Of a stretch of DNA of 63,847 nt, positions 12,205 through 58,455 are shown one piece after another. Numbering within the stretch: the stretch's first letter is position 1; each line of letters starts with the position of its first letter. The stretch spans positions 1-63,847 of IMG/VR virus record IMGVR_UViG_3300025131_000031. The stretch is one strand, 5' to 3'. A program made the translations under genes and the position numbers. The notes beneath the pieces are model-generated. The model was not told the DNA's origin and ran no database searches. It was given only the letters and a program-made list of their open reading frames with translations. This stretch comes from a virus. Taxonomy: Duplodnaviria > Caudoviricetes.

Positions 12205-14652
12205 ATGATAAAGTCGAATATTGAAGATGTGTTTGTTTCCATCATCTTGTTAGCCGAAGATACTGGTGTTGAACATACCAAGGCAGCTATAGATAATGTA
12301 TTAGAGCAAACACATAAAAATCTGGAAATAGTTATATCAACACTATTTGATGATGAAGAACTAAGAGCAAAATACGATAATAACTGGAACATAAAATTCA
12401 TTAAAGCTTCCAAGGGAATTGATTTTCTCAAAGAAGCTATTAATGAAACAAAAGGTGACATAATATTCTATAAGACTGTAACAAATGTCTTATGGTTTCC
12501 CCGACACATACAGGCGCATTTAGAGGAATTCAAGCAGCAAAGAAAAGCTAAATGGGCCTTGAGTCATGTTGAGTATAGAGATTTGGCTAATCCAGATCAT
12601 CCCCTCAATACGATTGGATATAGAATAGAGAATCCTCCTGAGACGGTTAAGATTATACTTGATGAGATTGCTCATTACAAGGAAGTTGCAACTAATTGGG
12701 GAGAGTGTGTAGCACAACACGAAGGGGAAAATCTGTTTATGGCAGGTTTAATCCTTAAGCAATGGAATGAAGAAAGATTATCAGGAGTCATTCCATCTGA
12801 ATTAACTGTTGTTCAATGGATTCCGGTTGATGGTGACAATCAAATGTCATATGAAGAAATGGCTAAGCAACTTGGAACCCCAGTCGAAACAGAAATTAAA
12901 GATGAAAATAAATTTATTGATGGTAACATAGAAGTTGTAAGAACATTACCGACAGTTATGGGTAACTCTCATCTCGATGAGGCTTATAATAATCAGATGA
13001 GAGAAGCTATCAAAACAACTGTTGACATTAAAACGATTGGTATCAAGAGAACAATAGGACTGGGTGATGTAATATTAGTGGAGCCAATCATAAAGAAGCT
13101 TAAGGAAAAACATCCAGAAGCTATAATAACTTTATACACAGCTAAGCCTGATATAGTGAAATATTTCAAGAACAAGCCGCATGATGTTCAAACAATAGAA
13201 GAAAATCAATTGCTTCAAGACTTTCTTTCTACAACACAGAATCAATTGAAGTATGATCTTGATCTTTCTTATGAGAGTAGATTAGGAACACCATTCATTG
13301 AAGCGTATACTGCTGTTTGCGGAATAGAATGGAATGATTACAAAGATAAACATCCTCAGTTAGAAGGCGGAGATGGTGGAGGAGTTGCAAAAGATAGACC
13401 ATATGTTGTAGTAGTTGGTGATGGATCTGGTTGGGCTGGTAAATCTTGGGGACAAGAAAACTATAAAGAGGTTGTACAAAACATAATCGATAGAGAATTC
13501 AGAGTAGTTGAGCCTGGATTTGAAATATTTAGTGGATTGACTGATGATCAACATGCAAAATGTGATTTAAATGAGTTGGTTACTATTATAAGAGATTGTT
13601 ATTTCTATATCGGAACTGATAATGGCCCTATGCATATAGCTAGAGCATTCAATAAGCCTTGTATCATTATAGCTGGAGCTGCAATTCCATATTTCTCTAC
13701 TCCAAATAGAGAAAAGATATTTTATGTCCAAGATAATTCATTAGATTGTTTGGGTTGCAAACATAAGCAATTCTTTAGTTCGCAAGGATCTAATAATCTA
13801 ACATTCGTTCCAACATGTACTAATGAAACAGGCGTATTGTGCATGCAAACTATCAAGCCCGAACATGTCATAAGAGCTATAGATAAATTTTTAGATAGAC
13901 CAAGATCAATATTCAGACCTAAAACTCCTACTGATTTCTATTTCAATATCCCAGGGCATTCTTATTACTATGATGAAGGAATAGATCTTATTCAGCGAAG
14001 TGATATTGAAGAACATCCTGATCAAGTAGATGATTTACACGAACAATATTCTAGTAGATGGGAAGAGGTTTATGAAAAATATTCTAAGACTTTTGTAGAG
14101 GAAGTTTTGAAACATAGACATGCTGAATCTCAGTTTAAAGAAGGAGATAAGAGAACATTTCTAGATGTTGGATGTAATATTGGATTAGTTGTTAAGGCCG
14201 CTGAAGAAGCTGGATTCAATGCGATTGGAATAGATTTGAATAGAAGTTCTATACTCAAAGGTAATGAATTATTTTCAAATTTGAAGCTTATTGAAGGTGA
14301 TTTTATGGATAGATCTACTCAACCAAATGTCGATAATGACTGGAAAGAATTAGAGTATGATATTATAGCCTGCAATCAAACTCTAGAACACATTTCAGAT
14401 CCTGTAAGATTCTTAAAAAGATGTAAAGAATATATGAGCGATACAGGCCTCATGTTCATTGGAATTCCATCGATGGATGAAGAAGGTGCTAGAGATAAAA
14501 TGCATAGATTCCAAACATTAGGAACTGGTGAACATACATGGCTGCCAACTAATAAATCATTTGAATACCTGATGAAGAAAGTAAAACTAAACTATGAACA
14601 CTTACAAGATACAAGCAAAGGAATATTTGTCAAAGCATGGAAGAGAACATAG
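12205..14652 (+). CDS. three-domain GT2-like / GT9 heptosyltransferase-like / SAM methyltransferase fusion
   Basis: N-terminal VSII...AIDNVLEQT; GLGDV and IGTDNGPMHIARA (GT9); FLDVGCNIG and TLEHISDP (class I MTase). Confidence 0.8.
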   Translation: MIKSNIEDVFVSIILLAEDTGVEHTKAAIDNVLEQTHKNLEIVISTLFDDEELRAKYDNNWNIKFIKASKGIDFLKEAINETKGDIIFYKTVTNVLWFPRHIQAHLEEFKQQRKAKWALSHVEYRDLANPDHPLNTIGYRIENPPETVKIILDEIAHYKEVATNWGECVAQHEGENLFMAGLILKQWNEERLSGVIPSELTVVQWIPVDGDNQMSYEEMAKQLGTPVETEIKDENKFIDGNIEVVRTLPTVMGNSHLDEAYNNQMREAIKTTVDIKTIGIKRTIGLGDVILVEPIIKKLKEKHPEAIITLYTAKPDIVKYFKNKPHDVQTIEENQLLQDFLSTTQNQLKYDLDLSYESRLGTPFIEAYTAVCGIEWNDYKDKHPQLEGGDGGGVAKDRPYVVVVGDGSGWAGKSWGQENYKEVVQNIIDREFRVVEPGFEIFSGLTDDQHAKCDLNELVTIIRDCYFYIGTDNGPMHIARAFNKPCIIIAGAAIPYFSTPNREKIFYVQDNSLDCLGCKHKQFFSSQGSNNLTFVPTCTNETGVLCMQTIKPEHVIRAIDKFLDRPRSIFRPKTPTDFYFNIPGHSYYYDEGIDLIQRSDIEEHPDQVDDLHEQYSSRWEEVYEKYSKTFVEEVLKHRHAESQFKEGDKRTFLDVGCNIGLVVKAAEEAGFNAIGIDLNRSSILKGNELFSNLKLIEGDFMDRSTQPNVDNDWKELEYDIIACNQTLEHISDPVRFLKRCKEYMSDTGLMFIGIPSMDEEGARDKMHRFQTLGTGEHTWLPTNKSFEYLMKKVKLNYEHLQDTSKGIFVKAWKRT

Positions 14653-20996: not shown

Positions 20997-21674
20997 ATGA
21001 ATTGTGAAGAATGCGGAAAATCAATAACAGGCAGAGGTAAATCTAATTATTGTCAAAGATGCTTCATGAGAATAGTCAAGCCTGGCAAAAAAGGAGGAGG
21101 TTGGAGCAAAGGATTAACAAAAGATACTGATGATAGAATTAAAAAAATGTCCATAAAAGTATCCGCTGCACTTAAAGGAAAGCCCAAGACAGAAAAGCAT
21201 GCAACAAAATTATCAAAAATTTTCAGGAAAAAATACGCAGGAAAAGGTAATCCTTTTTATGGTAAAAAACATTCAGATGATACTAAAAAAATATTATCTG
21301 AAAAGGCTATACATAGATCAAAAAAAATTAATCCTATATTCAATATTTTAAACAATATTTCGAATTCAGATACTAGTATTGAAGTTGCTGTAGAAAATTT
21401 TTTACAATCGGAAAAAATCGAATACAAGAAACAATATAGAATATATTATAATAAAATAAATTTTAAGATATATGATTTCTATCTACTAAAAGAGAATATT
21501 CTGATAGAAGTTGATGGTGATTTTTGGCATTGTAAATTAGAGAAAAAACCCAAGAATTATAAAGATATAATTGTGAATGATAAATTAAAAAATGATTTAG
21601 CTACAGAGAATGGATATAGATTAGTTAGAATATCTCAAAGCGAGTTAGATAGCGTTTGGAGGATTATAGTATGA
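20997..21674 (+). mobile_element. free-standing homing-type endonuclease: Zn finger + NUMOD3 + Vsr/DUF559-like nuclease
   Basis: CEEC..CQRC, WSKGLTK, NPFYGKKHSDDTKK (NUMOD3), TSIE, YDFYL, IEVDGDFWH, D..KN..A...GYRLVRI. Confidence 0.85.
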
Positions 21675-23218
21675 ATACTTTTCATATCCTCTGCTTAGCT
21701 GGAATCGGTGATATTCTATCACACATCACTAGACTGTCAGCAGTAGTTGCAATGAACAACCATAAGATAAAATTTTGGTTGGGAGGTTTTGGGAAGAGCC
21801 CTGAGTTCATGAAAGAAATTTTAGAAGCTGAGGGTGTTGAAGTTTCTCTAATTAAAAATCTTACATACCACAGTCAACTACCTGAAATGAGAGAATTTAT
21901 TAAGAGCAATGCTGTAAAAGAGGGAGATGTGTTTCAAGATTGGAGCTTTTGTGAGGAGATATTTCAAAACAAGGCTCCTATTTTTATGCAGTATCCGATG
22001 AGAGATCGATTCGATTATAAGTATGGACAAGATCTTCATAACTCAGAAAGACACAAGTATATTCAACACGGCCGATGTGTAGCTATACAGCCATTAACAA
22101 AAACAGGCAATGCTGAAGGTTTTGAATCTGATCTAGAGAGAGGTAGATTTTGGAGTAGAGATTGTTGGACATATATAATAGATAATCTGATTGAAGATGG
22201 ATTTACTCCTCTATTCACAGGATTAGAAGGTGAAGATTGGGGATTAGCTGATTATTGTAATGAAAAAAATTATCATTATGTCAATACATTAGGAACACCA
22301 ATAGATGAAACATTTGAAATACTAAGGTCATGCCACGGAAATATAGCTTGCAACTCATGGACATGGGAAATTACCTCTCGATGTGGAATTCCTACAGTAT
22401 GCTTCTATACAAAAAATCATTTCTTTATTCAGAATCATATTCCAGATGGCCCTTCAGATTTCTTTGACAATTGTATCATAGAAACTAATCAAGAAGCTGA
22501 TCCAGAACAATTATATCAAGCCTGGAAATATATGTATGATCATGATAAGAAACCAGATGTAAGTTACTCTGTATGCATGATCACCTATAACGATGAAGAG
22601 TGTATAGAGAAAACTATAGATAATGTTGTAGATACGGCTATTGATTCTTCAGAATTTATAGCTATAGATGGTGGTTCGACAGATAAAACTGTAGATATAC
22701 TAGAAAACAATGATTTGATAAGTGTGTTTACTAAAAAATGGGATGATGATTTTGAAGTACAGAAAAACTGTGCACTAAATAAAGCAACTAATAAATGGAG
22801 AGTATGGATTGACGCTGATGAAACCTACGAACCGATCTTCTGGAACCAACTGCCGTGGTATATTTGGCAAGCTGAAAACAATGGTGTTGACTGTATTTCG
22901 GTTCCAAGAATCAACATCATCGAAGGACTTACTGATGAAGAACTCCAAAAATATGCAGAAAGCAATGGGTGGCATCTCCAAGGATTCAGATGGGTTAACT
23001 ACCCAGATCACCAACAGAGAATATTCACAGACTCTTGCAAGTTTGTCGGCAGAACCCACGAGAGAATTACTGGTTACAAAAAAGATGCACTTCTTGTCGG
23101 AGTACACTGCTTACACCCAAAAACTAAGGAAAGACAAGAGAGAGGCTTCGAAAGAGAAAACAAACAATACAAAATAGAAGCAGATAAAATTTATGAAAGG
23201 GTTATGAAAGGAGAATAG
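21671..23218 (+). CDS. GT9-like / GT2 glycosyltransferase fusion
   Basis: N-terminal GIGD; C-terminal SVCMITYNDE, IDGGSTDKT, QKN.AL, WIDADE, YPDHQ.R, HE; start set at ATG 21671 after GGAGG. Confidence 0.8.
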   Translation: MNTFHILCLAGIGDILSHITRLSAVVAMNNHKIKFWLGGFGKSPEFMKEILEAEGVEVSLIKNLTYHSQLPEMREFIKSNAVKEGDVFQDWSFCEEIFQNKAPIFMQYPMRDRFDYKYGQDLHNSERHKYIQHGRCVAIQPLTKTGNAEGFESDLERGRFWSRDCWTYIIDNLIEDGFTPLFTGLEGEDWGLADYCNEKNYHYVNTLGTPIDETFEILRSCHGNIACNSWTWEITSRCGIPTVCFYTKNHFFIQNHIPDGPSDFFDNCIIETNQEADPEQLYQAWKYMYDHDKKPDVSYSVCMITYNDEECIEKTIDNVVDTAIDSSEFIAIDGGSTDKTVDILENNDLISVFTKKWDDDFEVQKNCALNKATNKWRVWIDADETYEPIFWNQLPWYIWQAENNGVDCISVPRINIIEGLTDEELQKYAESNGWHLQGFRWVNYPDHQQRIFTDSCKFVGRTHERITGYKKDALLVGVHCLHPKTKERQERGFERENKQYKIEADKIYERVMKGE

Positions 23219-32202: not shown

Positions 32203-33807
32203 ATGGCAAAATTTGCCAAGGTATCACCAAAGAAGTCAGAACAGAAGACATTCACATCTGACGATATCACAGAAACACTCAACGAAGAAGGTGGAAAAGC
32301 TTATACACTTCCATACAAGGAACGACTTGCAACTAGAGTTATGAGCTCCTTGATCAATGAAAAGAAGTTCTATGGAGATAATACAGCTGCATTATTGGCT
32401 GATATTAAGGAATGTGGAGAAAAGGATCCTGAATTCTTGATGAAGCTTGCCGCATATACTCGAAATGTAATGTATTTCAGATCTTCACCAGTATTTGTTT
32501 TAGGACATGCTTCATTGATTAACGAAGTAAAGCCTTTCGTAAGAAAGTGGACACCTCGAATTGTACAGAGAGCTGATGAACCAGCAGAAATTCTTGCATT
32601 GATTGGAACATATTTCACAGAAAAAGGTGAAAAGGCAGTTGTTCCTAACTCAATCAAGAAGGGTTTGGCAGATACTCTCAAAAAGTTTGACGCTTATGCT
32701 CTTATGAAGTACAAGGGAGTTGGTAAGTCGGTTAACTTGTATGATGTATTCAACGTTTGTCACCCAAAGCCAGATGATCAGAAACAAGCCGATCTTTGGA
32801 AGAAGTTTATGAATGGTGAGCTTGAATCCGCTAACACATGGGAAAGAAACCTTTCAGCTGGTGGCAAAAAGACAGAAGGAGAAAAGGCTGAAATTTGGGA
32901 AGAAACAATTCCAGTAATGGGATATATGGCATTGCTTAGAAACCTTAGAAACTTTGCGGAAGCAAATATTTCTAATGAAGCTATTGATTTGGTAGTTGAA
33001 AAGCTAACAAATGAAAAGGCAGTTTTGAATAGCAAGCAGTTCCCATTTAGATTCTTCTCTGCTTGGAGAGAATTGTCTAAGGTAGCAACAGGCCGTGAAG
33101 ATAGAGGTATGTATTACGATGGCCATCCACCAGCCTCTGAACTTGCAAGAGTACTTAAGGCACCTGATAAATCTAATCTTAGAAAGTTGATTGGAGCTAT
33201 TGAAGATGCATTTGAAATTTCGATTAAGAATGTTACTCAATTGCCAGGTACTACAGTTATTATGTCGGATCACTCAGGTTCAATGACTGCACCAATTTCT
33301 GATAGATCTTCAGTTACAAATATGGACATAGCTTTAGTTCTTCACTCAATCGCTGATAAGCTTTCAAAGAAGAATGCCGGTATAATCTTTGGAGAAAGAG
33401 TAGCGACAGTTTCTTCAGAAGGTATTTCGGCAATGAAGTTTATTGATGAAATGAGAAAGAAAGATGTTGGTCATTCAACAAATGCATACAAAGCATTTGA
33501 AGCATTGATCAGATCAGGAGTATCGGTTGATCGTGTAATTCTTCTTTCTGATATGCAATGCTACAGTACAGGATTCTATTTCAGATCTTCATTGTCAGTG
33601 AACGATTCTTGGAAGAAATACAAGAAGATTGCTCCAAATGCTTATCTCCACACAGTGGATCTTTCAGGCTATGGAACATCTCAAGTTGCAATTAACGACC
33701 ATAATGTAGCACTCTATTCTGGTTGGAACACAAAGTTTCTTGATTTGATAGCACAAGTAGAAAGAGGAATTGGATCGCTAATTCAGGACATCGAAAACTA
33801 TAGATAA
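32203..33807 (+). CDS. rsr: Ro60/TROVE-domain RNA-binding protein with vWA domain
   Basis: NEEGGKAY, RADE, PNSIKKGLA, FDAY.L.KY, HPKP, TWE, MGYMALLRNLRN, SKQFPFRF; MIDAS DHSGSM; AGGAGG RBS. Confidence 0.95.
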   Translation: MAKFAKVSPKKSEQKTFTSDDITETLNEEGGKAYTLPYKERLATRVMSSLINEKKFYGDNTAALLADIKECGEKDPEFLMKLAAYTRNVMYFRSSPVFVLGHASLINEVKPFVRKWTPRIVQRADEPAEILALIGTYFTEKGEKAVVPNSIKKGLADTLKKFDAYALMKYKGVGKSVNLYDVFNVCHPKPDDQKQADLWKKFMNGELESANTWERNLSAGGKKTEGEKAEIWEETIPVMGYMALLRNLRNFAEANISNEAIDLVVEKLTNEKAVLNSKQFPFRFFSAWRELSKVATGREDRGMYYDGHPPASELARVLKAPDKSNLRKLIGAIEDAFEISIKNVTQLPGTTVIMSDHSGSMTAPISDRSSVTNMDIALVLHSIADKLSKKNAGIIFGERVATVSSEGISAMKFIDEMRKKDVGHSTNAYKAFEALIRSGVSVDRVILLSDMQCYSTGFYFRSSLSVNDSWKKYKKIAPNAYLHTVDLSGYGTSQVAINDHNVALYSGWNTKFLDLIAQVERGIGSLIQDIENYR

Positions 33808-36715: not shown

Positions 36716-38749
36716 TTGATACTAGAAGGAATTCAGCATATAAACGACCTTAAAATTGACAAGTTTCTAGATCTTGTCAGAAGGTTGAATAATAAAGACA
36801 AATCATTAGAGCTGAGTGTAAAGTTTGATGGATCTGCAAACTTAGGATTTGGCTTAGATGATAAAGGAAAACTATATTTTTCTAGGGATGTGAAGGGTCA
36901 ACCAGATCATAAACATTCTACGAAAGATTGGCCTGGGAAGCCAATGTATAATCCTATTAGGAGTGCTGTCGCTGCATTGCTCAGTGTCAAAGACGTACTT
37001 GAAAAGCAGTTGAAGCCTGGTGATTATGTGGGTTGTGAAGTGCTATTCGAAACTATACCCAATGCTATAGAATATGGAGATAATTATATTATCGTTCATG
37101 ATGCAGCATTCAATTCATTGATTAAAAAGCTTAGACCTACTAAGGCTAAAATAGATTTATACTACTATAATCCTGAATCAAAGAAAATAGATAAGAGCAT
37201 TGAGACTGTTACTTATAGCTTCTCAGGAAAGGAAGTAGTTAGAAGTAACAAGTATAAGCTCTCCATTGGAAATGATATTAATCAATTAGAAGACTTAATG
37301 AAACAAAAAAATAAAACTTTTAAGGATTCTTCTAATTATGATGTGTTAACTTTCAGGGCTGTTGGAAAAGATAAGGATAAAATAAAAAGAGAAAAGGAAA
37401 GTTTAACTAAACAAATATCTAATTTACAACTGGATATAAAGGATAAACTAATAGATTCTATCCTAAATAAGCTATCAGCAGGAGCGATGGCACAACCACC
37501 AGTATTTGATGATAAAGGAAATAATGTAGGAGGAAGTTGGCCAGAGGGTGTAGTAATAAAAGATCTGAAAACAGGAGAGCTATCTAAGATAGTATCGGTC
37601 TTCCCTATTATTAATAAATTCCTTTGGTACTACAGAGAAATGGCAATGTCAGGTGCAGGACCAGCAGGAAGTTTTGTTCCTGGAGTAATGAGAACATTTC
37701 AACATTCAGTTGCCGAAAAAGTATTTGGTATCAAGGGTTTGAAGTCCGTTGGTATAGTAAAAATTATCAACAACAAATATAAATCAGCTACTGCGAATGA
37801 GAAGATTCTCAGGTACTTGAAAGATAATGGATTCAAATTCACTAAAGCTAATTCAGCAAGAAACAGTTTCGTCAATGAAATAAAGAAAGCTATCAAGAGT
37901 CTGAATAAGCTCAAAAGAGAATTTGACAAAACAGGAAAGGAAAAAGTACTCAAGGTTAAGAGAGGCTCATTCAAGAGAGATGTAAAACATGATCCAGTTC
38001 ATATTCGAAAGACTTATGAAACTTTCTTAGACATAGAAACAGAGCTCAATGACTATCTCAAATTAGTTCAGAGAGTAAGTGAAAATACTCCAGAAGGTAC
38101 AGCGGTTCAGCTGTTGAGGATATTCTTTGGTCAAAGAAATTTGAATAAGCTGAATGAGGATTATAATCTTCAAAAATTTGTTATTGAAAAGTTAAATGAA
38201 ATAGGAGTATTGCACGAAGGAGGAACTAATGTAAAAATTGGAGTGTTAGTAGGTAGATTCCAGCCTCCTCAAAGATTGCATATTGAATTAATCAGAAAAG
38301 CTCTAATGAAGAATAATAAAGTGTATGTGTTTGTAGCAGGACAAAAATTAGACAAGAACAGAAATCCTTTCCCACATCAGATCAGAGCTAATGTACTAGC
38401 TAAATTTGTCAAAAGCAATAAGGTCATGATTCATTCAGCTAAATCAGGATTTATTCCAGGCTTAATAGATGAATTTGTAGACTTGAATAATGTCGGTGAA
38501 GTAAATGTTTATGCTGGTACCGATAGAATTGGTGGATATAAGGGAATGTTCAAGAACTATTGGGATCATGATAATGTAAAAGTTAAGGTGAATGAATTGA
38601 AGAGAGATCCTGATTCGGTCAGTGCTACAAAAGTTAGAGAATCTATCAAAAACAATGATTTCAAATCGTTTGTAGACTATATGCCTGAGGGATTATCATT
38701 GACATACTTAACAGGGCTGTTCAAAAAATATAGAAAGTATTTGACATGA
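36716..38749 (+). CDS. fusion of KxDG nucleotidyltransferase/ligase-like domain and HxGH-type cytidylyltransferase-like domain
   Basis: SVKFDGS and EGVVIK in the N-terminal part; GRFQPPQRLH, NPF, GTDR, SATKVR in the C-terminal part. Confidence 0.7.
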   Translation: MILEGIQHINDLKIDKFLDLVRRLNNKDKSLELSVKFDGSANLGFGLDDKGKLYFSRDVKGQPDHKHSTKDWPGKPMYNPIRSAVAALLSVKDVLEKQLKPGDYVGCEVLFETIPNAIEYGDNYIIVHDAAFNSLIKKLRPTKAKIDLYYYNPESKKIDKSIETVTYSFSGKEVVRSNKYKLSIGNDINQLEDLMKQKNKTFKDSSNYDVLTFRAVGKDKDKIKREKESLTKQISNLQLDIKDKLIDSILNKLSAGAMAQPPVFDDKGNNVGGSWPEGVVIKDLKTGELSKIVSVFPIINKFLWYYREMAMSGAGPAGSFVPGVMRTFQHSVAEKVFGIKGLKSVGIVKIINNKYKSATANEKILRYLKDNGFKFTKANSARNSFVNEIKKAIKSLNKLKREFDKTGKEKVLKVKRGSFKRDVKHDPVHIRKTYETFLDIETELNDYLKLVQRVSENTPEGTAVQLLRIFFGQRNLNKLNEDYNLQKFVIEKLNEIGVLHEGGTNVKIGVLVGRFQPPQRLHIELIRKALMKNNKVYVFVAGQKLDKNRNPFPHQIRANVLAKFVKSNKVMIHSAKSGFIPGLIDEFVDLNNVGEVNVYAGTDRIGGYKGMFKNYWDHDNVKVKVNELKRDPDSVSATKVRESIKNNDFKSFVDYMPEGLSLTYLTGLFKKYRKYLT

Positions 38750-38872: not shown

Positions 38873-40147
38873 ATGAAAATATTTGCACCTCAGGATAAAG
38901 TAATCGCTAATGTCGACAGGGCTATTGAACATCTTGAAACCGGTAGCACATCCCCCGTGTTAGTTGAATTCGATCCATCTAATTCATGCAATCATTCATG
39001 CCACTTCTGTTTGAGTGGTCACATACATCTACCTGAATCGAAAGGTTTTCCAACTTTCAATCGAAATATGTTGTCAAGAGATTTGATGATGAGAACCTGT
39101 GAAGAACTTATTGATATGAAAGTTAGAGCAGTGAATTGGACAGGAGGAGGAGAACCAACAGCAAACCCAGCTTTAAAAGAATGCATTGAATATCTTGGCA
39201 AGAATGGAGTCAAGATGGGAATGTTTACTAATGGGACTTTGTTACATACATTTGATTTGTTTGATACGCTATTAGAATATATGACTTGGGTTAGAATTTC
39301 AATTGATGCAGGAGACCCTGATACGTATAATTCTATAAGAAGAACTGTAAAGGGTAAAAATGATTGGAATAGAGCTCTTGAAAATCTTCTTATATTATTG
39401 AATAAGAGATCGAATAAGAGAACAAATTGGTGGAGTACACATGATGAGCTAGCAGTATATCCTATGGGTAGAGGTACTAAAGAAAAATCTTGGCACCCAA
39501 ATCAAATGGATATTGGAGTTGGTTTCGTTATAACTCCCGATACATATAATGGAATAGTTGATTTTGCTGAATGGTTTAGAGATTCAGATGTAGACTATTG
39601 CCAATACAAACCTGAAATTGTTAATGTTGAAAGAGAAGGTGGGATTCAAAGACAAGCTAAATTCTGGAAGGAGAAAGTAAATCCTCTGTTAGATGAAGCA
39701 AGAGATATTCTAGGTGATAAATTTCAGATGAATGGTTACCATTTTGAAGACTTAGAAAATGACCCAAAGCTACTTGGTAGAACATATGAGAAATGTTTAG
39801 GCTCTCAAATATCTCCTTGTATAGGAGCAGATGGTGAAGTCTATGTTTGTCCAAATCATCGAGGACATGAAAGATATTCTTATGGATCATTGCACAAACA
39901 GACTTTCAAACAAATATGGAATGACATAAACAAAAGAAAGAAAGTTATGTCAATCATAGAAGATGAAGAACAGTTCTCAAAATGTACTCAGTTGTGCAAA
40001 CCTCACGAAAGTAATAAAATGTGTTGGACCATACATCAGGCTTTAATAGCTGCAGATTCAGCATCAAAAAAGAAATCATTGAAACAATCATTCTTGGCTT
40101 TGCAAGATAAGAAAAGAGAAAAGATTGATCATTGGGAGTTTATATAG
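38873..40147 (+). CDS. radical SAM / SPASM protein
   Basis: CNHSCHFC, GGGEPT, TNG, RISID; C-terminal IGADGEVYVC...C..C. Confidence 0.9.
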   Translation: MKIFAPQDKVIANVDRAIEHLETGSTSPVLVEFDPSNSCNHSCHFCLSGHIHLPESKGFPTFNRNMLSRDLMMRTCEELIDMKVRAVNWTGGGEPTANPALKECIEYLGKNGVKMGMFTNGTLLHTFDLFDTLLEYMTWVRISIDAGDPDTYNSIRRTVKGKNDWNRALENLLILLNKRSNKRTNWWSTHDELAVYPMGRGTKEKSWHPNQMDIGVGFVITPDTYNGIVDFAEWFRDSDVDYCQYKPEIVNVEREGGIQRQAKFWKEKVNPLLDEARDILGDKFQMNGYHFEDLENDPKLLGRTYEKCLGSQISPCIGADGEVYVCPNHRGHERYSYGSLHKQTFKQIWNDINKRKKVMSIIEDEEQFSKCTQLCKPHESNKMCWTIHQALIAADSASKKKSLKQSFLALQDKKREKIDHWEFI

Positions 40148-48939: not shown

Positions 48940-49009
48940 GGGCCGGTATCTCAACGGAGAGCACTTGTTTTGCACTCAGGTAGATAGGGTTCAAGTCTCT
49001 CCCCGACCA
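48940..49009 (+). pseudogene. degenerate tRNA-Ala(UGC)
   Basis: D arm, tttgcac loop and ggttcaagt retained; acceptor stem does not pair. Confidence 0.6.
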
Positions 49010-51331: not shown

Positions 51332-51418
51332 TTCGGAGTAGCTCAATTGGCAGAGCGCTTGGCTGTTAACCAAGAGGCCCTTATAAGGTTTAACCAGGTT
51401 CGATCCCTGGCTCCGGAG
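51332..51418 (+). tRNA. tRNA-Asn(GUU) with 19-nt variable region
   Basis: cttgg-ctgttaa-ccaag; ccagg-ttcgatc-cctgg; no encoded CCA. Confidence 0.85.
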
Positions 51419-51432
51419 CTTAATTAAGATAT

Positions 51433-51723: not shown

Positions 51724-51797
51724 CAGTGAATAGCCAAGTGGTAAGGCGCACGGTTGTGGCCCGTGTTTCTAAGGTTCGATTCCTTATTCACTGACCA
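51724..51797 (+). tRNA. tRNA-His(GUG), no G-1, A73
   Basis: cagtgaa/ttcactg, cacgg-ttgtggc-ccgtg, A-CCA. Confidence 0.85.
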
Positions 51798-52872: not shown

Positions 52873-53262
52873 ATGCCAGTAAATAATGATGAAAAATGGA
52901 AACGCTTGTTTATGAATGGTTATGATGAAGGCTTCAAAGCTGCCAGGGCACACACACCACAGCCCATGACCGTTCTGACAACCGTAGGAAGCTTCTGTGA
53001 TAAGAATCCAAAGGGAAATGAGTATGTCGTCCCAGACGGGCTCTGTGGGTTTGCATCTGTAATCGTCAAACCGGGCAATTCTTCGTTCGCTAAGTGGTTA
53101 AAAAATGAAGGTTTAGCCGAGAAACATTACTATGGTGGCGTATATATCTGGATTTCGGATCACAATCAAAGCTATGAGAGGAAGAAAGTTCACGCCAATA
53201 AAATGGCAGAGATTTTCCAGCTGGCAGGGATTGCAGCACACGCAGAAAGTAGATTAGATTGA
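52873..53262 (+). CDS. hypothetical phage protein
   Basis: GLCGFA.V...FAKWLK...QSYERK...SRLD; AAGGAG RBS. Confidence 0.75.
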   Translation: MPVNNDEKWKRLFMNGYDEGFKAARAHTPQPMTVLTTVGSFCDKNPKGNEYVVPDGLCGFASVIVKPGNSSFAKWLKNEGLAEKHYYGGVYIWISDHNQSYERKKVHANKMAEIFQLAGIAAHAESRLD

Positions 53263-53421
53263 TGATTTATTGTGGATTAGAAGTTGCATTGGTTATAGCA
53301 TTGGTGGCGGGGTTCAAATATTGTCGAGATTGTGGAAGACGAATTTGTGATTGCATAAAAGAACTGAAAAAGAAGAAGAGGCAAGAGAGTTTCATAAAGA
53401 AATATGCTTATAAAAACTAAT

Positions 53422-53510
53422 GGCCAAGTGGCGAAACGGCAAACGCGGTAGGCTTAAACCCTGCTGGACGATTAATCTCCTTAAGGGTTCGAATCCCTTC
53501 TTGGCTACCA
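53422..53510 (+). tRNA. tRNA-Leu(UAA)
   Basis: loop cttaaac, long variable arm, A73-CCA. Confidence 0.9.
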
Positions 53511-53527
53511 TACACGAAAGGAAGAAT

Positions 53528-54205
53528 ATGTATAAGAATTTGTCAGTAAAATGTATGAGATCTGAATCTGATAATGGAGCAACTAAAATATTCAACTATA
53601 GAGCTCTTAAGTCCGGTGAATTTCTCAATTGTAGAATAGATAGATTGGCAACAGGTTATAGAAATATTCGATCAAAAACAGAATACATTCGTAGTAAGAG
53701 AACTTATATGATTCAGAATGATGCATCAAGATATATTATTCCTAAGGGATTATTTGATGAAGCTTTAGAATTATCATATCAGACAAAAAAATCCGATGAT
53801 CAGAACATCTTAGGTCCCTGGCCTGAGCCATATGAACACGAAATATTTTTATTCAGACCAGCAGGAATTGCGTGTGACACGCAAGCAGCAAAAAATCAAG
53901 CTTTATTTCTTAGATCATATGAAGATTGTAATCTTTATAATACTACAGTACAGAATATGATTACGACGCATGATTTAACTGATTGCTTTAGATCACCTGA
54001 TTATGTAAGACCAGAAGTTAATGAGGTTTCAGAAAGTCCATTCGATCATGATGATGAAGGACAGATTGAAAGAGTAAGAGTTGATGATCCTTGGGATCAT
54101 GAAGAAATTGCACAGCAATGCAGAGTTGGAAGTCCAGAAGAAAAAGCTGATCCGGTAGTTGATTTTTTCAATAATCCAAATCCGGATGAAGATATACCAT
54201 TTTAA
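53528..54205 (+). CDS. hypothetical protein with acidic ...DEDIPF tail
   Basis: start moved downstream of tRNA-Leu; C-terminus resembles the SSB-type DDIPF tail. Confidence 0.65.
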   Translation: MYKNLSVKCMRSESDNGATKIFNYRALKSGEFLNCRIDRLATGYRNIRSKTEYIRSKRTYMIQNDASRYIIPKGLFDEALELSYQTKKSDDQNILGPWPEPYEHEIFLFRPAGIACDTQAAKNQALFLRSYEDCNLYNTTVQNMITTHDLTDCFRSPDYVRPEVNEVSESPFDHDDEGQIERVRVDDPWDHEEIAQQCRVGSPEEKADPVVDFFNNPNPDEDIPF

Positions 54206-54293
54206 GGTAGGTACTGCGGAAAGGTCTGCAATCCGGTTTGAACCCGGAGGGGGTGTCAAAAGCCAGGGGTTCGATTCCTCTACCTACCTTCCA
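54205..54293 (+). tRNA. tRNA with Ser anticodon (UGA) on a Sec-like 8/5 scaffold
   Basis: 8-bp acceptor aggtaggt/acctacct, 6-bp D stem tgcgga/tctgca with 4-nt loop, tccgg-tttgaac-ccgga, long variable arm, U73-CCA. Confidence 0.8.
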
Positions 54294-54311
54294 TTAACTA
54301 AAGGTTATTAA

Positions 54312-54569
54312 ATGCTTGCTAAAAAAGATGTTAATTTCCGACATCACAGAGAATCTTGTAACACTTGCAAATATGCAGAGTTCTTAAGCGAAGGAAGATT
54401 CTGGGAATTTAGATGTCCCTTGTTAGAAGATGGGCAAGTTATAATTTCTATAGATATTGGAAAAATTTTAGATGCATCAAGACAATACGTTTGTGATAAT
54501 TTCGATCCAGATCAGTCAATGACAGTTGCTGATAAATTGGATGTTGAAATTAGTAAATTTGATAATTAA
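54312..54569 (+). CDS. small Cys-rich protein
   Basis: CNTC...C...VCD.F. Confidence 0.6.
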   Translation: MLAKKDVNFRHHRESCNTCKYAEFLSEGRFWEFRCPLLEDGQVIISIDIGKILDASRQYVCDNFDPDQSMTVADKLDVEISKFDN

Positions 54570-54655
54570 GCTAGGTTGGCTCAGCGGCGACAGTACCGCC
54601 CTTGTAAGGCGACGAGTAAATCTCCACCACGGTTCGAGTCCGTGACCTAGCTCCA
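54570..54655 (+). tRNA. tRNA-Thr(UGU) with extended variable arm
   Basis: gctaggt/acctagc, loop cttgtaa, gag-taaat-ctc arm, CCA. Confidence 0.85.
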
Positions 54656-54665
54656 TATTTATAAT

Positions 54666-54741
54666 GGTGCGGTAGCCAAGAGGCTTAAGGCACGAGGTTG
54701 CAACCCTCAGATCGTGAGTTCGATCCTCACCCGTACCTCCA
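54666..54741 (+). tRNA. tRNA-Cys(GCA)
   Basis: loop ttgcaac, U73-CCA. Confidence 0.9.
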
Positions 54742-54756
54742 AATTAGAAAGACAAG

Positions 54757-55260
54757 ATGAAATTCAATTGGAATTTTGGTCGCTCATATGGTTATAAGAC
54801 AATAAAGATAGTGAATAATTCCCGCAACAATGATCCAGCCTACGAGACAGAGAATAGTTCGGGAATTGATTTAAGAGCTGATGTATTGACACCACACCAT
54901 GCAGAAGAATTAGATGCATTCAAATTAGCAATTCCTTGCGGCGAAAGAAGAATAATATCAACAGGAATTCATGTTGAAATTCCAAAAGGTTATGAAGGAC
55001 AAGTAAGAAGTAGATCAGGATTAGCAGCTAAGCAAGGAGTATTTGTTTTGAATTCTCCGGGAACTATTGATTCTGATTATAGAGGTGAAATCAAAGTTAT
55101 ACTGCAGAATTTAGGAGTTGAAGCTTTCTTCATAGAGCAAGGTGATAGAATTGCACAATTAGTTTTCTCACCAGTAGAACAATTCAATTTCGAAAAGGTT
55201 TTTAAACTCAAAGAAACAGAAAGAGGATCCGGCGGATTTGGATCTACAGGAAAAAATTAA
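54757..55260 (+). CDS. dut: dUTPase (trimeric)
   Basis: [40 protein letters not shown]. Confidence 0.97.
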
Positions 55261-55518
55261 GATGCGGGCATCTTGTGGCTTCATTTACTTCATACAAAAT
55301 ATAAGTTTTTGTCCAAAATGTAACTATACGGGAGTTTCAGATGCCAAAGTCAAATAAGAGAGTAAAAGCTGATCAAAATTATAGAACTCATAATGGAGCT
55401 ATAGTGAAAAATGTTTTGCTCATTAGATATGGCAAGAAGAAGGCTTGGGTGGGTGAAGTGAATGATAAATTTGTTTTTGATAAGAATGGTGAACCAAAGA
55501 GATTTAACACATTTTAAT

Positions 55519-55591
55519 GCATCACTAGTTCAATCGGTAGAACACCTCGCTGCCAACGAGGAGGTAATGGGATCGTAGCCCATGTGATGCT
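55519..55591 (+). tRNA. tRNA-Gly(GCC)
   Basis: gcatcac/gtgatgc, cctcg-ctgccaa-cgagg, U73; atypical T loop; no CCA. Confidence 0.8.
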
Positions 55592-55691
55592 CTCTCAAAT
55601 AATTGTTATTTATCAGAAGAAATAGTTAAAATAGCCGAAGCACATTCGAGAAGATTAAGAACTTATTGGACAAATTGAAAAGGCCGTAAAA

Positions 55692-56090
55692 ATGGATGAT
55701 TATTATTATGTAACATTCAGAGAAACAAAAGATAAATCTAAAAGAATGAAAGCAATTAGCACTATTTGGGTTTATATGGAAACACCAGATAGATTAGTTC
55801 CAGACAATGAGCCTGAAAGTTTCAAAAATAGAGTAATCAGAGAATTAGAAGATTGGGGCTATGAGGAACCAGAAGTTATTCAATGCAAGAGTGTAATAAG
55901 CGTTGATGATCCTGAAGCTCTTTGCGAATTAATCGATGATGAATTAGAAAATGGAAATCAACATAGATTGGTAGGATCAGCAAATCAATTTTTAGATGCT
56001 GCAAGAAAATGTCATGTTGATGAAAATCACTTACCAATATTTATGAGAACAGTTAGAGATATTTTGACACCAAATATTATGCCCGAGTAG
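55692..56090 (+). CDS. hypothetical protein
   Basis: 132 aa; stop lies inside tRNA-Leu. Confidence 0.6.
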   Translation: MDDYYYVTFRETKDKSKRMKAISTIWVYMETPDRLVPDNEPESFKNRVIRELEDWGYEEPEVIQCKSVISVDDPEALCELIDDELENGNQHRLVGSANQFLDAARKCHVDENHLPIFMRTVRDILTPNIMPE

Positions 56091-56685: not shown

Positions 56686-56889
56686 ATGATGTTACTAATG
56701 GTCACAATCTGTTTCGTTGGAACATTCTTTAAAGTATTCAGAATGCTCGATAGATTAAATGATCTTTCTAAAGAATCTATAATTCAAAGAGAATTGATTA
56801 GAATACATGCTGAACGTGAAAGAAAAGAGCTTAAAAGACAGATAGATGAATTGAGAAATGATATTCATATCGGGGAATGGTCTAGTTAG
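56686..56889 (+). CDS. small membrane/coiled-coil protein
   Basis: GAGG RBS; stop lies inside tRNA-Pro. Confidence 0.55.
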   Translation: MMLLMVTICFVGTFFKVFRMLDRLNDLSKESIIQRELIRIHAERERKELKRQIDELRNDIHIGEWSS

Positions 56890-56951
56890 GTTTAGGACGC
56901 CTGCTTTGGGAGCAGGAAACTTCGCAGGTTCAAATCCTGCTTCCCCGACCA
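56871..56951 (+). tRNA. tRNA-Pro(UGG)
   Basis: cggggaa/ttccccg, cctgc-tttggga-gcagg, CCA. Confidence 0.9.
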
Positions 56952-56970: not shown

Positions 56971-57588
56971 ATGATAGAAACATGGTTTACATCTGACACA
57001 CATTTCAATCATGCTAATATAATCAAATATTGCAATCGGCCGTTTGTTAATATAGACGAAATGGATGCGGTTCTAATTGATAATTGGAATGAGAGAGTTA
57101 AGCCGAATGATATTGTGTGGCATTTAGGAGATTTTATATTTAGCAGAAATTGGAAAGAGATTGCTAAACTTGCTAATAGACTGAATGGTAAGATAAGTCT
57201 ATTGAAAGGAAATCATGATAAATATCTCTATAAGAATAGGCACTCTCTAATAAATAATAAAGGATGGGGAACAAATTCTTTTGACACAATATCCGATTCG
57301 TACAAAGAAGTAAATATAAATGGTCAGAGAATGACTCTCTGTCATTATGGAATGAGAGTTTGGAATGCATCGCATTGGGGAAATTGGCATTTGTATGGTC
57401 ATTCACACGATACACTTCCTAGTCTTGGCAGAAGTTTTGATGTTGGTGTAGATGCTAATGATTACAAACCACTTCACTTCGATGAAGTAAAAGCAAAAAT
57501 GGACAAGATGGATTTTGTTCCAGTAGATGGACATAAACCAGAGTATGAACAAGTTAAAGAGGTTTTTAAGGAGAACAGGAAATTGTAG
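56971..57588 (+). CDS. calcineurin-like metallophosphoesterase
   Basis: SDTHFNH, LGD, GNHD, CHY, GHSH, DVGVD. Confidence 0.9.
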   Translation: MIETWFTSDTHFNHANIIKYCNRPFVNIDEMDAVLIDNWNERVKPNDIVWHLGDFIFSRNWKEIAKLANRLNGKISLLKGNHDKYLYKNRHSLINNKGWGTNSFDTISDSYKEVNINGQRMTLCHYGMRVWNASHWGNWHLYGHSHDTLPSLGRSFDVGVDANDYKPLHFDEVKAKMDKMDFVPVDGHKPEYEQVKEVFKENRKL

Positions 57589-57663
57589 GGAGAAAGCATA
57601 ACAGGTATATGCCGCACTCTTATAAAGTGCAGATAGTGGGTTCAAGTCCCATTCTCCCCACCA
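57587..57663 (+). tRNA. tRNA-Ile(UAU)
   Basis: gcact-cttataa-agtgc, T arm, A73-CCA; A1:C72 mismatch. Confidence 0.8.
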
Positions 57664-58286: not shown

Positions 58287-58362
58287 GCATCCCAATGTTC
58301 CAAGGCAGGCGACTGACGCTCCAAACGTTCGTGGCGGAGTTCGATTCTCCGGGGGTGTGCCA
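58287..58362 (+). tRNA. tRNA-Trp(CCA)
   Basis: loop ctccaaa, T arm cggag/ctccg, G73-CCA; atypical D arm. Confidence 0.75.
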
Positions 58363-58376
58363 CATTTTAAAATAAT

Positions 58377-58455
58377 GGACCGGAAGCCTAAACTTGGTAT
58401 AGACGCCATCCCGATAAGGTGGAGACAGTAGGTTCAAATCCTACCCGGTCTACCA
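58377..58455 (+). tRNA. tRNA-Ile(GAU), C33
   Basis: ccatc-ccgataa-ggtgg, CCA. Confidence 0.8.

Follow-up and report, generated by a model that had tools for sequence, protein, structure and literature searches.

A serine tRNA gene of unusual shape in a phage tRNA array

The gene described here is a tRNA-Ser(UGA) gene of the IMG/VR viral contig IMGVR_UViG_3300025131_000031, which was analysed over its full 63,847 bases, referred to below as the window. CheckV estimates that the contig represents ~23% of a genome. Its GC content is ~0.35, every long open reading frame (ORF) lies on the + strand, and phage replication genes encoding a UvsX-like recombinase, an exonuclease, a DnaB-like helicase and a dUTPase are present. 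The contig recurs in 20 rows from 19 studies of marine metagenomes, all of them non-RNA; the X20 contigs, which are labelled metatranscriptomic, do not reach the tRNA-Ser gene. The contig is a fragment of a large marine phage.

A tRNA array with at least 25 genes spans 48.8-60.3 kb. ARAGORN and the Rfam tRNA model (RF00005) each report 25 tRNAs, and the two sets differ. The gene in question was called by ARAGORN as tRNA-Ser(tga) at 54206-54289 and is, according to this program, the sole serine tRNA of the array, whereas RF00005 at its gathering score made no call over 54205-54293, even though it called 25 other tRNAs of the array.

Direct reading of the gene (Table 1) bore out the elements listed in the initial annotation, namely a perfect 8-bp acceptor stem (A54205-U54212 with A54282-U54289, followed by U54290 and CCA at 54291-54293), a 5-bp T stem with one G-U pair (AGGGG 54265-69 with CCUCU 54277-81), a 6-bp D stem, again with one G-U pair (UGCGGA 54215-20 with UCUGCA 54225-30), around the 4-nt loop AAGG, a long variable region, the anticodon UGA and U73. 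As also proposed, the resulting 13 bp of acceptor and T stem can be refolded from 8/5 into 9/4 (base pairs of acceptor stem/T stem), in which U54281 takes A54213 instead of A54265. Both the T loop and the anticodon loop are intact, as is the GG in the D loop; the canonical landmarks U8 and A14 are absent, position 8 being an A and the D loop having only 4 nt. A54231 stands opposite G54249, so that the anticodon stem gains no sixth pair. The minimum free energy fold (-34.6 kcal/mol, z = -1.86) reproduces the acceptor arm and the D arm. Its energy carries little weight by itself, as 8 of 200 shuffled sequences folded equally well, and it is homology that marks the gene as more than a chance fold.

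The sequence, including its UUCCA tail, is identical in record 12 of X19 and record 2 of X16, which are two other runs from different studies, and an assembly error is therefore not the explanation. A metagenome locus from the same phage (L084) carries the identical tRNA, and contigs of four runs showed no variation inside it. The gene is a real tRNA that is non-canonical and resembles selenocysteine tRNA (tRNA-Sec) in shape, with its long acceptor stem, long D stem closed by a tetraloop and extra arm, as initially proposed.

Table 1. Elements of the tRNA-Ser(UGA) gene and the ORF preceding it. Column numbers and fractions refer to the 34-row family alignment A1 described in the text.
Feature	Position	Strand	Description	Basis
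Whole tRNA-Ser(UGA) gene	54205..54293	+	Maximal extent, possible additional 5' base through encoded CCA	
Optional 5' base	54205..54205	+	A able to pair with U54289 (optional 13th pair); also the last base of the upstream TAA	
Acceptor stem, 5' strand	54206..54213	+	GGUAGGUA, 8 nt	R1 alignment, family covariation
Linker	54214..54215	+	CU, 2 nt, acceptor stem to D stem	
D arm	54216..54229	+	5 bp GCGGA/UCUGC, tetraloop AAGG (54221-54224)	Columns 15:23 paired in 31/34 and 16:22 in 28/34, compensatory changes
Anticodon arm	54232..54248	+	5 bp UCCGG/CCGGA, loop UUUGAAC, anticodon UGA 54239-54241	
Variable region	54249..54265	+	17 nt; short stem GGU 54252-54 with GCC 54262-64	Columns 49-52:64-67 covary in the family; the window makes 3 of the 4 pairs
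T arm	54266..54280	+	4 bp GGGG/CCUC (one G-U), loop UUCGAUU 54270-54276	
Acceptor stem, 3' strand	54281..54288	+	UACCUACC	Family covariation, R1
UU	54289..54290	+	U54289 discriminator in the 12-bp reading, U54290 in the 13-bp reading; one base extra relative to all relatives	R1 alignment
Encoded CCA	54291..54293	+	One base off the family register	
Upstream ORF, including stop	53528..54205	+	TAA 54203-54205 adjoins the tRNA	

Covariation among phage relatives supports an 8/4 fold

A sensitive blastn search of GenBank phages with the 89 nt returned 12 records, among them the annotated tRNA-Ser-TGA of Klebsiella phage vB_KpM_FBKp34 and a Salmonella/Shigella phage group. Further relatives were collected from IMG/VR by exact scans with the anticodon arm of the window gene, the 23-mer giving 21 loci and the 17-mer 68 loci. 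One locus with its match at the contig edge (L041) was omitted, and 17 of 70 segments without a recognisable T arm were dropped, of which 13 look non-tRNA and four (L052, L068, L075 and L079) look like degenerate or odd members. The remaining 53 segments yielded 36 distinct tRNAs, including that of the window. All but one of the 35 others fold as 8/4 or 9/3, the exception being the 7/5-like L033. N73-CCA stands in the 12-bp register in 31 of these 35 relatives, three have no encoded CCA, and the L023/L032 type has a 13-nt 3' acceptor strand with a bulge.

In alignment A1, which holds 34 distinct rows including the window and L033 and to which the following fractions refer, 97.7% of the cells of the 8/4 structure are paired, a value that none of 500 shuffles or slides by ±3 positions approached. 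The eighth acceptor pair (columns 9:84) forms in 33/34 rows and changes in a compensatory way (GC 16, UA 13, AU 4, unpaired 1). In the D stem, the fourth pair occurs as CG 18, AU 11 and GC 2 and the fifth as AU 21 and GC 7. Five D-stem pairs are thus supported, and the sixth forms in only 8/34; the 6-bp D stem of the initial annotation does form in the window, but only five of its pairs are conserved. The D loops of the family have 3-5 nt with GG at the end, and the idea that the relatives have 3-bp D stems with large loops was rejected, since the alignment gives a 5-bp stem with a 3-5-nt loop. The D arm of the window gene is therefore the norm of its family rather than an exception. A sixth anticodon-stem pair (columns 28:46) is found in a single row. 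Further, G2:C71 is kept in 31/34 and a C:G second D-stem pair in 32/34, and position 8 covaries with position 65.

As U54281 in the window could pair either way, the 8/4 assignment rests on homology. Because the relatives are 8/4, the 8/5 partition suggested initially does not hold, and the gene is to be read as 8/4, or as 9/4 if A54205 is retained in the mature molecule.

Of the covariance models, that of tRNA-Sec gave a score below its cut-off (see below). R1, a model built from 32 of the relatives without the window and without L033, scored the window gene at 83.1 bits (E 1.8e-20), part of this score being by construction because the 17-nt anticodon arm of the window gene had served to collect the training set. 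The contributions of the acceptor, D and T arms are non-circular, and the next-best tRNA of the window reached 28.7 bits. In the R1 alignment every acceptor, D, anticodon and T pair of the window gene is standard. Both the fold and the family membership are shown by covariation.

The relatives sit in phage or prophage DNA: GenBank phages of Klebsiella, Shigella and Salmonella, IMG/VR contigs and four Pseudomonas genomes. Among 185,579 species genomes the 23-mer had no match and a gapped pattern matched in five places (four Pseudomonas and one Rubritalea metagenome-assembled genome), and the near absence of the family from these genomes suggests a phage-borne lineage. Megablast of 53000-56000 against GenBank phages gave no match, the exact D arm of the window gene was not found in IMG/VR, and the 23 loci with relatives of the phage dUTPase contained no R1 hit; the closest of them, L096, was without the tRNA.

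Two further observations concern the relatives. One 8/4 tRNA-Ser(UGA) subfamily (L023, L032, L080-L083 and L086-L090) has a conserved bulged G in its 3' acceptor strand (GGAUGGUA / UACCAGUCC), and compensatory changes flank the bulge (A3:U to G3:C in L083, U7:A to C7:G in L090). In Mycobacterium phage prophiT49-2 (L010), positions ~301-385 contain an unannotated tRNA-like sequence whose anticodon loop carries CGA (Ser); it has mismatches in its acceptor and anticodon stems and shares 73% identity with the window tRNA.

A probable serine-decoding tRNA of the (8/4) class

According to the available text of Mukai et al. (2017, NAR 45:2776, PMC5389517), (8/4) tRNASer occur in bacteriophages, have serine anticodons and are counted among the (8/4) allo-tRNAs. 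The same text describes allo-tRNAs as having been found during a search for tRNA-Sec and as having 8/4 or 9/3 branches, 12 bp in total, a tRNA-Sec-like D arm in which a tetraloop closes a long stem, and either G73 or U73; both 8/4 and 9/3 allo-tRNAs inserted serine in Escherichia coli. The window gene combines an 8-bp acceptor stem on a 4-bp T stem (54206-13/54281-88; 54266-69/54277-80), the D stem GCGGA-AAGG-UCUGC with its tetraloop, a variable region of 17 nt that includes a 3-bp stem, a U at position 73 whichever of the two candidate bases this is, and the serine anticodon UGA at 54239-41. The 12-bp length is less clear-cut, as the CCA register and A54205:U54289 permit 13 bp and the 12-bp form needs trimming and re-addition of CCA. 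We conclude that the gene is very probably a functional phage serine tRNA with a UGA anticodon and a member of the phage/prophage (8/4) tRNASer family within the allo-tRNA class.

UCA is the most used serine codon of the contig (227 of 663, 34%, in 23 long ORFs), and ordinary serine decoding, one of the roles considered in the initial annotation, is therefore the likely one; its other suggestions, insertion of a different residue and action as a decoy, found no support. Charging, delivery and use in translation are inferred. A SerRS N-terminal domain was not found to be encoded in the 64-kb fragment, and the seryl-tRNA synthetase of the host would charge the tRNA through the extra arm and the conserved acceptor and D-stem pairs. 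EF-Tu would then deliver the seryl-tRNA, which would read UCA, and probably other UCN codons, supplementing the decoding of the phage's top serine codon.

Several points weigh against this interpretation. The encoded CCA is one base off register compared with every CCA-encoding relative, and a molecule with 12-bp ends that retained this CCA would have an overhang of 5 nt, which might impair its function. As the relatives were fetched with the 17-nt anticodon arm of the window gene, they are a biased slice of the family. The rows that contain the contig are all non-RNA, which counts neither for nor against the interpretation, and the searches described above returned no close relative of the phage that could reveal selection on the tRNA-Ser gene.

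The scaffold itself has already been described, and what is new here, as far as our searches reach, is the shifted CCA with the possible 13th pair. The literature searched on allo-tRNAs, also in connection with bacteriophages, yielded neither later studies of the serine tRNAs of phages nor a serine tRNA with 13 bp; this negative is limited in that supplementary figures S2 and S3 of PMC5389517 may show similar clusters or a similar case.

Two candidate mature forms

The mature tRNA may be either of two forms, a 12-bp 8/4 molecule with re-added CCA or a 13-bp 9/4 molecule. The CCA of R1 aligns to U-C-C at 54290-92, which means that in the window gene an additional base separates the acceptor helix from the CCA. 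The 12-bp form would start at G54206, have U54289 as discriminator and acquire CCA anew after trimming, while the 13-bp form would start at A54205 and use the encoded CCA. In the latter case RNase P would cut before A54205, A54205:U54289 would become the ninth acceptor pair and U54290 the discriminator. This 9/4 serine tRNA would be a sub-case of the interpretation given above, differing in its ends only, with a branch length otherwise reserved for tRNA-Sec; we regard it as a serious possibility, albeit one with less than an even chance.

The argument for the longer form begins with the register, since CCA 54291-93 stands in the right register only when the acceptor helix ends with A54205:U54289. 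CCA directly follows N73 in 21 of the 25 Rfam-called tRNAs of the array and is also encoded by the tRNA-Trp called by ARAGORN alone, so this phage generally encodes functional CCA ends, and for tRNA-Ile(UAU) it is the CCA register, not the helix called by ARAGORN, that gives a sensible cloverleaf. Nevertheless, the four remaining array tRNAs have no encoded CCA, so the host must trim trailers and add CCA, and it would therefore produce a 12-bp 8/4 tRNA from the tRNA-Ser gene as well. Three independent assemblies share the same UUCCA tail; A54205, however, is fixed regardless, as the final base of the upstream TAA stop. Complementarity between positions -1 and 73 is also frequent in the array (U-1 with A73 in most genes), yet the 12-bp register is kept there.

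A 13-nt 3' strand ahead of N73-CCA also occurs in two other lineages of the family. A scan of metagenomes for this register returned 11 loci, namely L084, nine of the bulged-G subfamily and L085, an odd gene with an unpaired C at the junction of acceptor and T stem. The family thus tolerates a CCA-anchored 13-nt 3' strand, but none of the relatives has a 13th pair, the other 13-nt strands accommodating the additional base as a bulged G or an unpaired C. The A54205:U54289 pair itself has zero covariation support, there being no sequence variant among the compared contigs. As for the host enzymes, bacterial RNase P picks its cleavage site via the RCCA end and leaves the 8-bp stem of E. coli tRNA-Sec. 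SerRS accepts both 8/5 and 9/4 tRNASec in the available account of PMC5389517.

On balance, we only tentatively entertain a mature molecule that keeps A54205 and the encoded CCA and would then be a 13-bp 9/4 elongator decoding serine. For RNase P, EF-Tu and the ribosome, an acceptor branch of 12 bp is regarded as an almost universal measure. If the 9/4 form were true, it would be the first natural 13-bp branch outside the selenocysteine system (the G-1 of tRNA-His apart) used by EF-Tu at a sense codon, and would reveal an exception to the 12-bp rule in the ordinary elongation of some phage-host pair. Phage serine tRNAs of the 8/4 type already divide the 12 bp in an unusual way; a 9/4 serine tRNA occurring in nature would depart from the length as such and would, in addition, provide a ready scaffold for genetic-code engineering, which already uses allo-tRNAs and 13-bp tRNASec chimeras.

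Less probable explanations

The UUCCA tail, unique in comparison with the 35 distinct relatives, could also be the result of a one-base T insertion before CCA that shifted the 3' end and left a decayed or poor gene with inefficient maturation or charging. The array does hold at least one degenerate tRNA-like gene, at 48940-49009 (31.8 bits, no CCA). We consider decay of the tRNA-Ser gene unlikely, because each of its 25 stem pairs, the variable arm excepted, is standard with zero mismatch, the T loop, D-loop GG and anticodon loop are intact, the sequence is the same across samples, and this is the only serine tRNA of the array and reads the top serine codon.

It is speculation, and in our estimate improbable, that the tRNA serves counter-defence, its odd scaffold being a poor substrate for tRNA nucleases of the host or of competitors, either besides decoding or as a decoy. 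The near confinement of the family to phage and prophage DNA fits this idea, which is otherwise conjecture, whereas the anticodon loop, the usual target of such nucleases, is ordinary, and the same fold is present in some bacteria (PMC5389517, text available in part).

An ordinary 7/5 class II tRNA-Ser starting at 54206, with a merely coincidental tRNA-Sec-like look, was the outcome that the initial annotation had set against its own proposal. ARAGORN calls the gene in this way, and U54281 of this single sequence is able to form a fifth T-stem pair with A54265. The family contradicts it: the corresponding pair 49:65 forms in 6/34 rows of A1, against the 33/34 of the eighth acceptor pair. Moreover, U8 and A14 are absent, the D loop has only 4 nt, and RF00005 (gathering score 29 bits) misses not only the window gene but also all 10 family genes tested. 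We therefore regard the 7/5 fold as very improbable.

The final alternative is the derivation from tRNA-Sec considered initially, in which the molecule would carry selenocysteine or another residue to UCA, either serylated, converted by SelA and delivered by SelB or charged by a different synthetase, for example CysRS, through U73. The bacterial tRNA-Sec is 8/5 and the archaeal and eukaryotic ones are 9/4. A possible 13-bp branch, the long D stem with its tetraloop and U73 would fit such an origin, and within the tRNA clan the best Rfam hit of the window gene is indeed tRNA-Sec (RF01852), at 35.3 bits against a cut-off of 47. Applied to the whole record, however, RF01852 scores ten tRNAs at 27-38 bits with an ordinary tRNA-Glu first at 37.7, and since this tRNA-Glu outscores the tRNA-Ser, the Sec score is not diagnostic. 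The informative point is the failure of the general tRNA model, not the Sec score.

Other marks of tRNA-Sec fail as well: the anticodon is UGA instead of UCA, position 73 is U instead of G, the sixth anticodon-stem pair is absent (as in all but one of the 34 family rows) and the extra arm is a short one. A branch of 12 bp and a serine anticodon are common to all relatives; in the available part of the review PMC7609411, allo-tRNAs have 12 bp and a length of 13 bp is the mark of tRNA-Sec. No match to the SelA or SelB domains (PF03841, PF09107) was found in the 63.8-kb record, which is weak evidence as the record represents ~23% of the phage. Natural tRNASec with sense anticodons do exist, according to the same review (citing Mukai 2016), but CysRS needs a GCA anticodon (PMC5389517, as far as available). 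Failing at the Rfam cut-off, the UCA anticodon, G73 and the 6-bp anticodon stem alike, the tRNA-Sec derivation was rejected as the least credible of the explanations considered.

Annotation of the family and other features of the contig

RF00005 at its gathering score found none of 10 family genes in loci where 40 other tRNAs were called, and the GenBank annotation under the 12 blastn matches is absent in eight, tRNA-Lys in two and tRNA-Ser in two. Because the family escapes RF00005 and is often unannotated or mislabelled, phage tRNA repertoires and analyses of codon supply undercount tRNA-Ser. In Shigella phage B2 (L011), the deposited tRNA-Ser at 251-336 is 28 nt off the 8/4 gene at 279-364.

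Within the array, the two finders disagree at 48940-49009, 58377-58452 and 58287-58362. Rfam alone called the weak Ala-like gene at 48940-49009 and a tRNA-Ile(GAU)-like gene, and ARAGORN alone the tRNA-Trp and the tRNA-Ser studied here. For tRNA-Ile(UAU) (57587-57663), the ARAGORN call (57588-57659) and the Rfam call (57587-57660) are one base apart at each end; the encoded CCA matches the Rfam register, implying an A1-C72 mismatch. The tRNA-Asn at 51332-51419 (88 nt), which has no encoded CCA, and the tRNA-Thr at 54570-54655 (86 nt) have long variable regions of ~15-19 nt, unusual for these class I identities. The tRNA-Pro at 56871-56951 has 81 nt.

The tRNA-His(GUG) at 51724-51797 has no encoded G-1, carries A73 followed by CCA and is thus of the type known from alphaproteobacteria; both a 7/5 and an 8/4 drawing (CAGUGAAU/AUUCACUG) are possible for it. 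A scan with a 15-mer of this tRNA returned 32 loci with 25 distinct segments, only a handful of which are tRNA-His, and these are heterogeneous. (8/4) tRNASer coexist with (8/4) tRNAHis without G-1 and with A73 in the tRNA clusters of alpha-proteobacterial phages, according to the available text of PMC5389517. By analogy, the presence of this tRNA-His type beside an (8/4) tRNASer hints at an alphaproteobacterial host group.

The ORFs on either side of the tRNA-Ser gene (53528-54202 and 54312-54566) have no relatives in IMG/VR and belong to no Pfam or PHROG family. Run X16 departs from the window at 54029-54049, where the upstream ORF encodes its acidic C-terminal portion, by three substitutions and by deletions totalling 12 nt, and as this set of indels is in frame overall, the upstream ORF is consistent with a real coding sequence.

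A protein with a TROVE domain (Ro60-like; PF05731, E 3.5e-33) is encoded at 32203-33807. The partners of Ro60 are Y RNAs, several kinds of which contain tRNA-like modules; at gathering score, Rfam called none of them in the window. A block of sugar and modification enzymes (12205-14652, 21656-23218, 36716-38749 and 38873-40147) comprises a fusion of glycosyltransferase 9 and methyltransferase, a GT2, a cytidylyltransferase-like protein and a radical SAM/SPASM protein.

Comparison with known tRNA classes

The molecule shares with tRNA-Sec (RF01852) the possible 13-bp branch, the long D stem with its 4-nt loop and the extra arm, and like tRNA-Sec it would probably be serylated by SerRS. It differs in having UGA instead of UCA, U73 instead of G73, a 5-bp instead of a 6-bp anticodon stem and a short extra arm, in its score below the cut-off of the Sec model and in the absence of Sec machinery nearby. 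The selC* tRNACys of Mukai et al. (2017) likewise combine a tRNA-Sec-like scaffold with an 8-bp acceptor stem and U73; in the available text (PMC5389517) they carry GCA or UCA anticodons, whereas the window gene has neither of these, nor the bulged A51a of that group.

With canonical class II tRNA-Ser (7/5, RF00005) the window tRNA has in common the UGA anticodon, the extra arm, a standard T loop, the D-loop GG and, presumably, its function, but it departs from that class in its 8/4 partition, the absence of U8 and A14, the 4-nt D loop and its being missed by RF00005 at gathering score.

The closest likeness is to the (8/4) tRNASer of phages, with which the gene shares the 8-bp acceptor stem, the 4-bp T stem, the long D stem with tetraloop, the extra arm, a position 73 that is G or U in the class, the serine anticodon and the location in a phage tRNA cluster; as in those phages, a tRNA-His without G-1 and with A73 is also present. 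It differs from this class, which is defined by 12 bp, in that its CCA lies one base further 3' and a 13th pair, giving a 9/4 branch, is possible.

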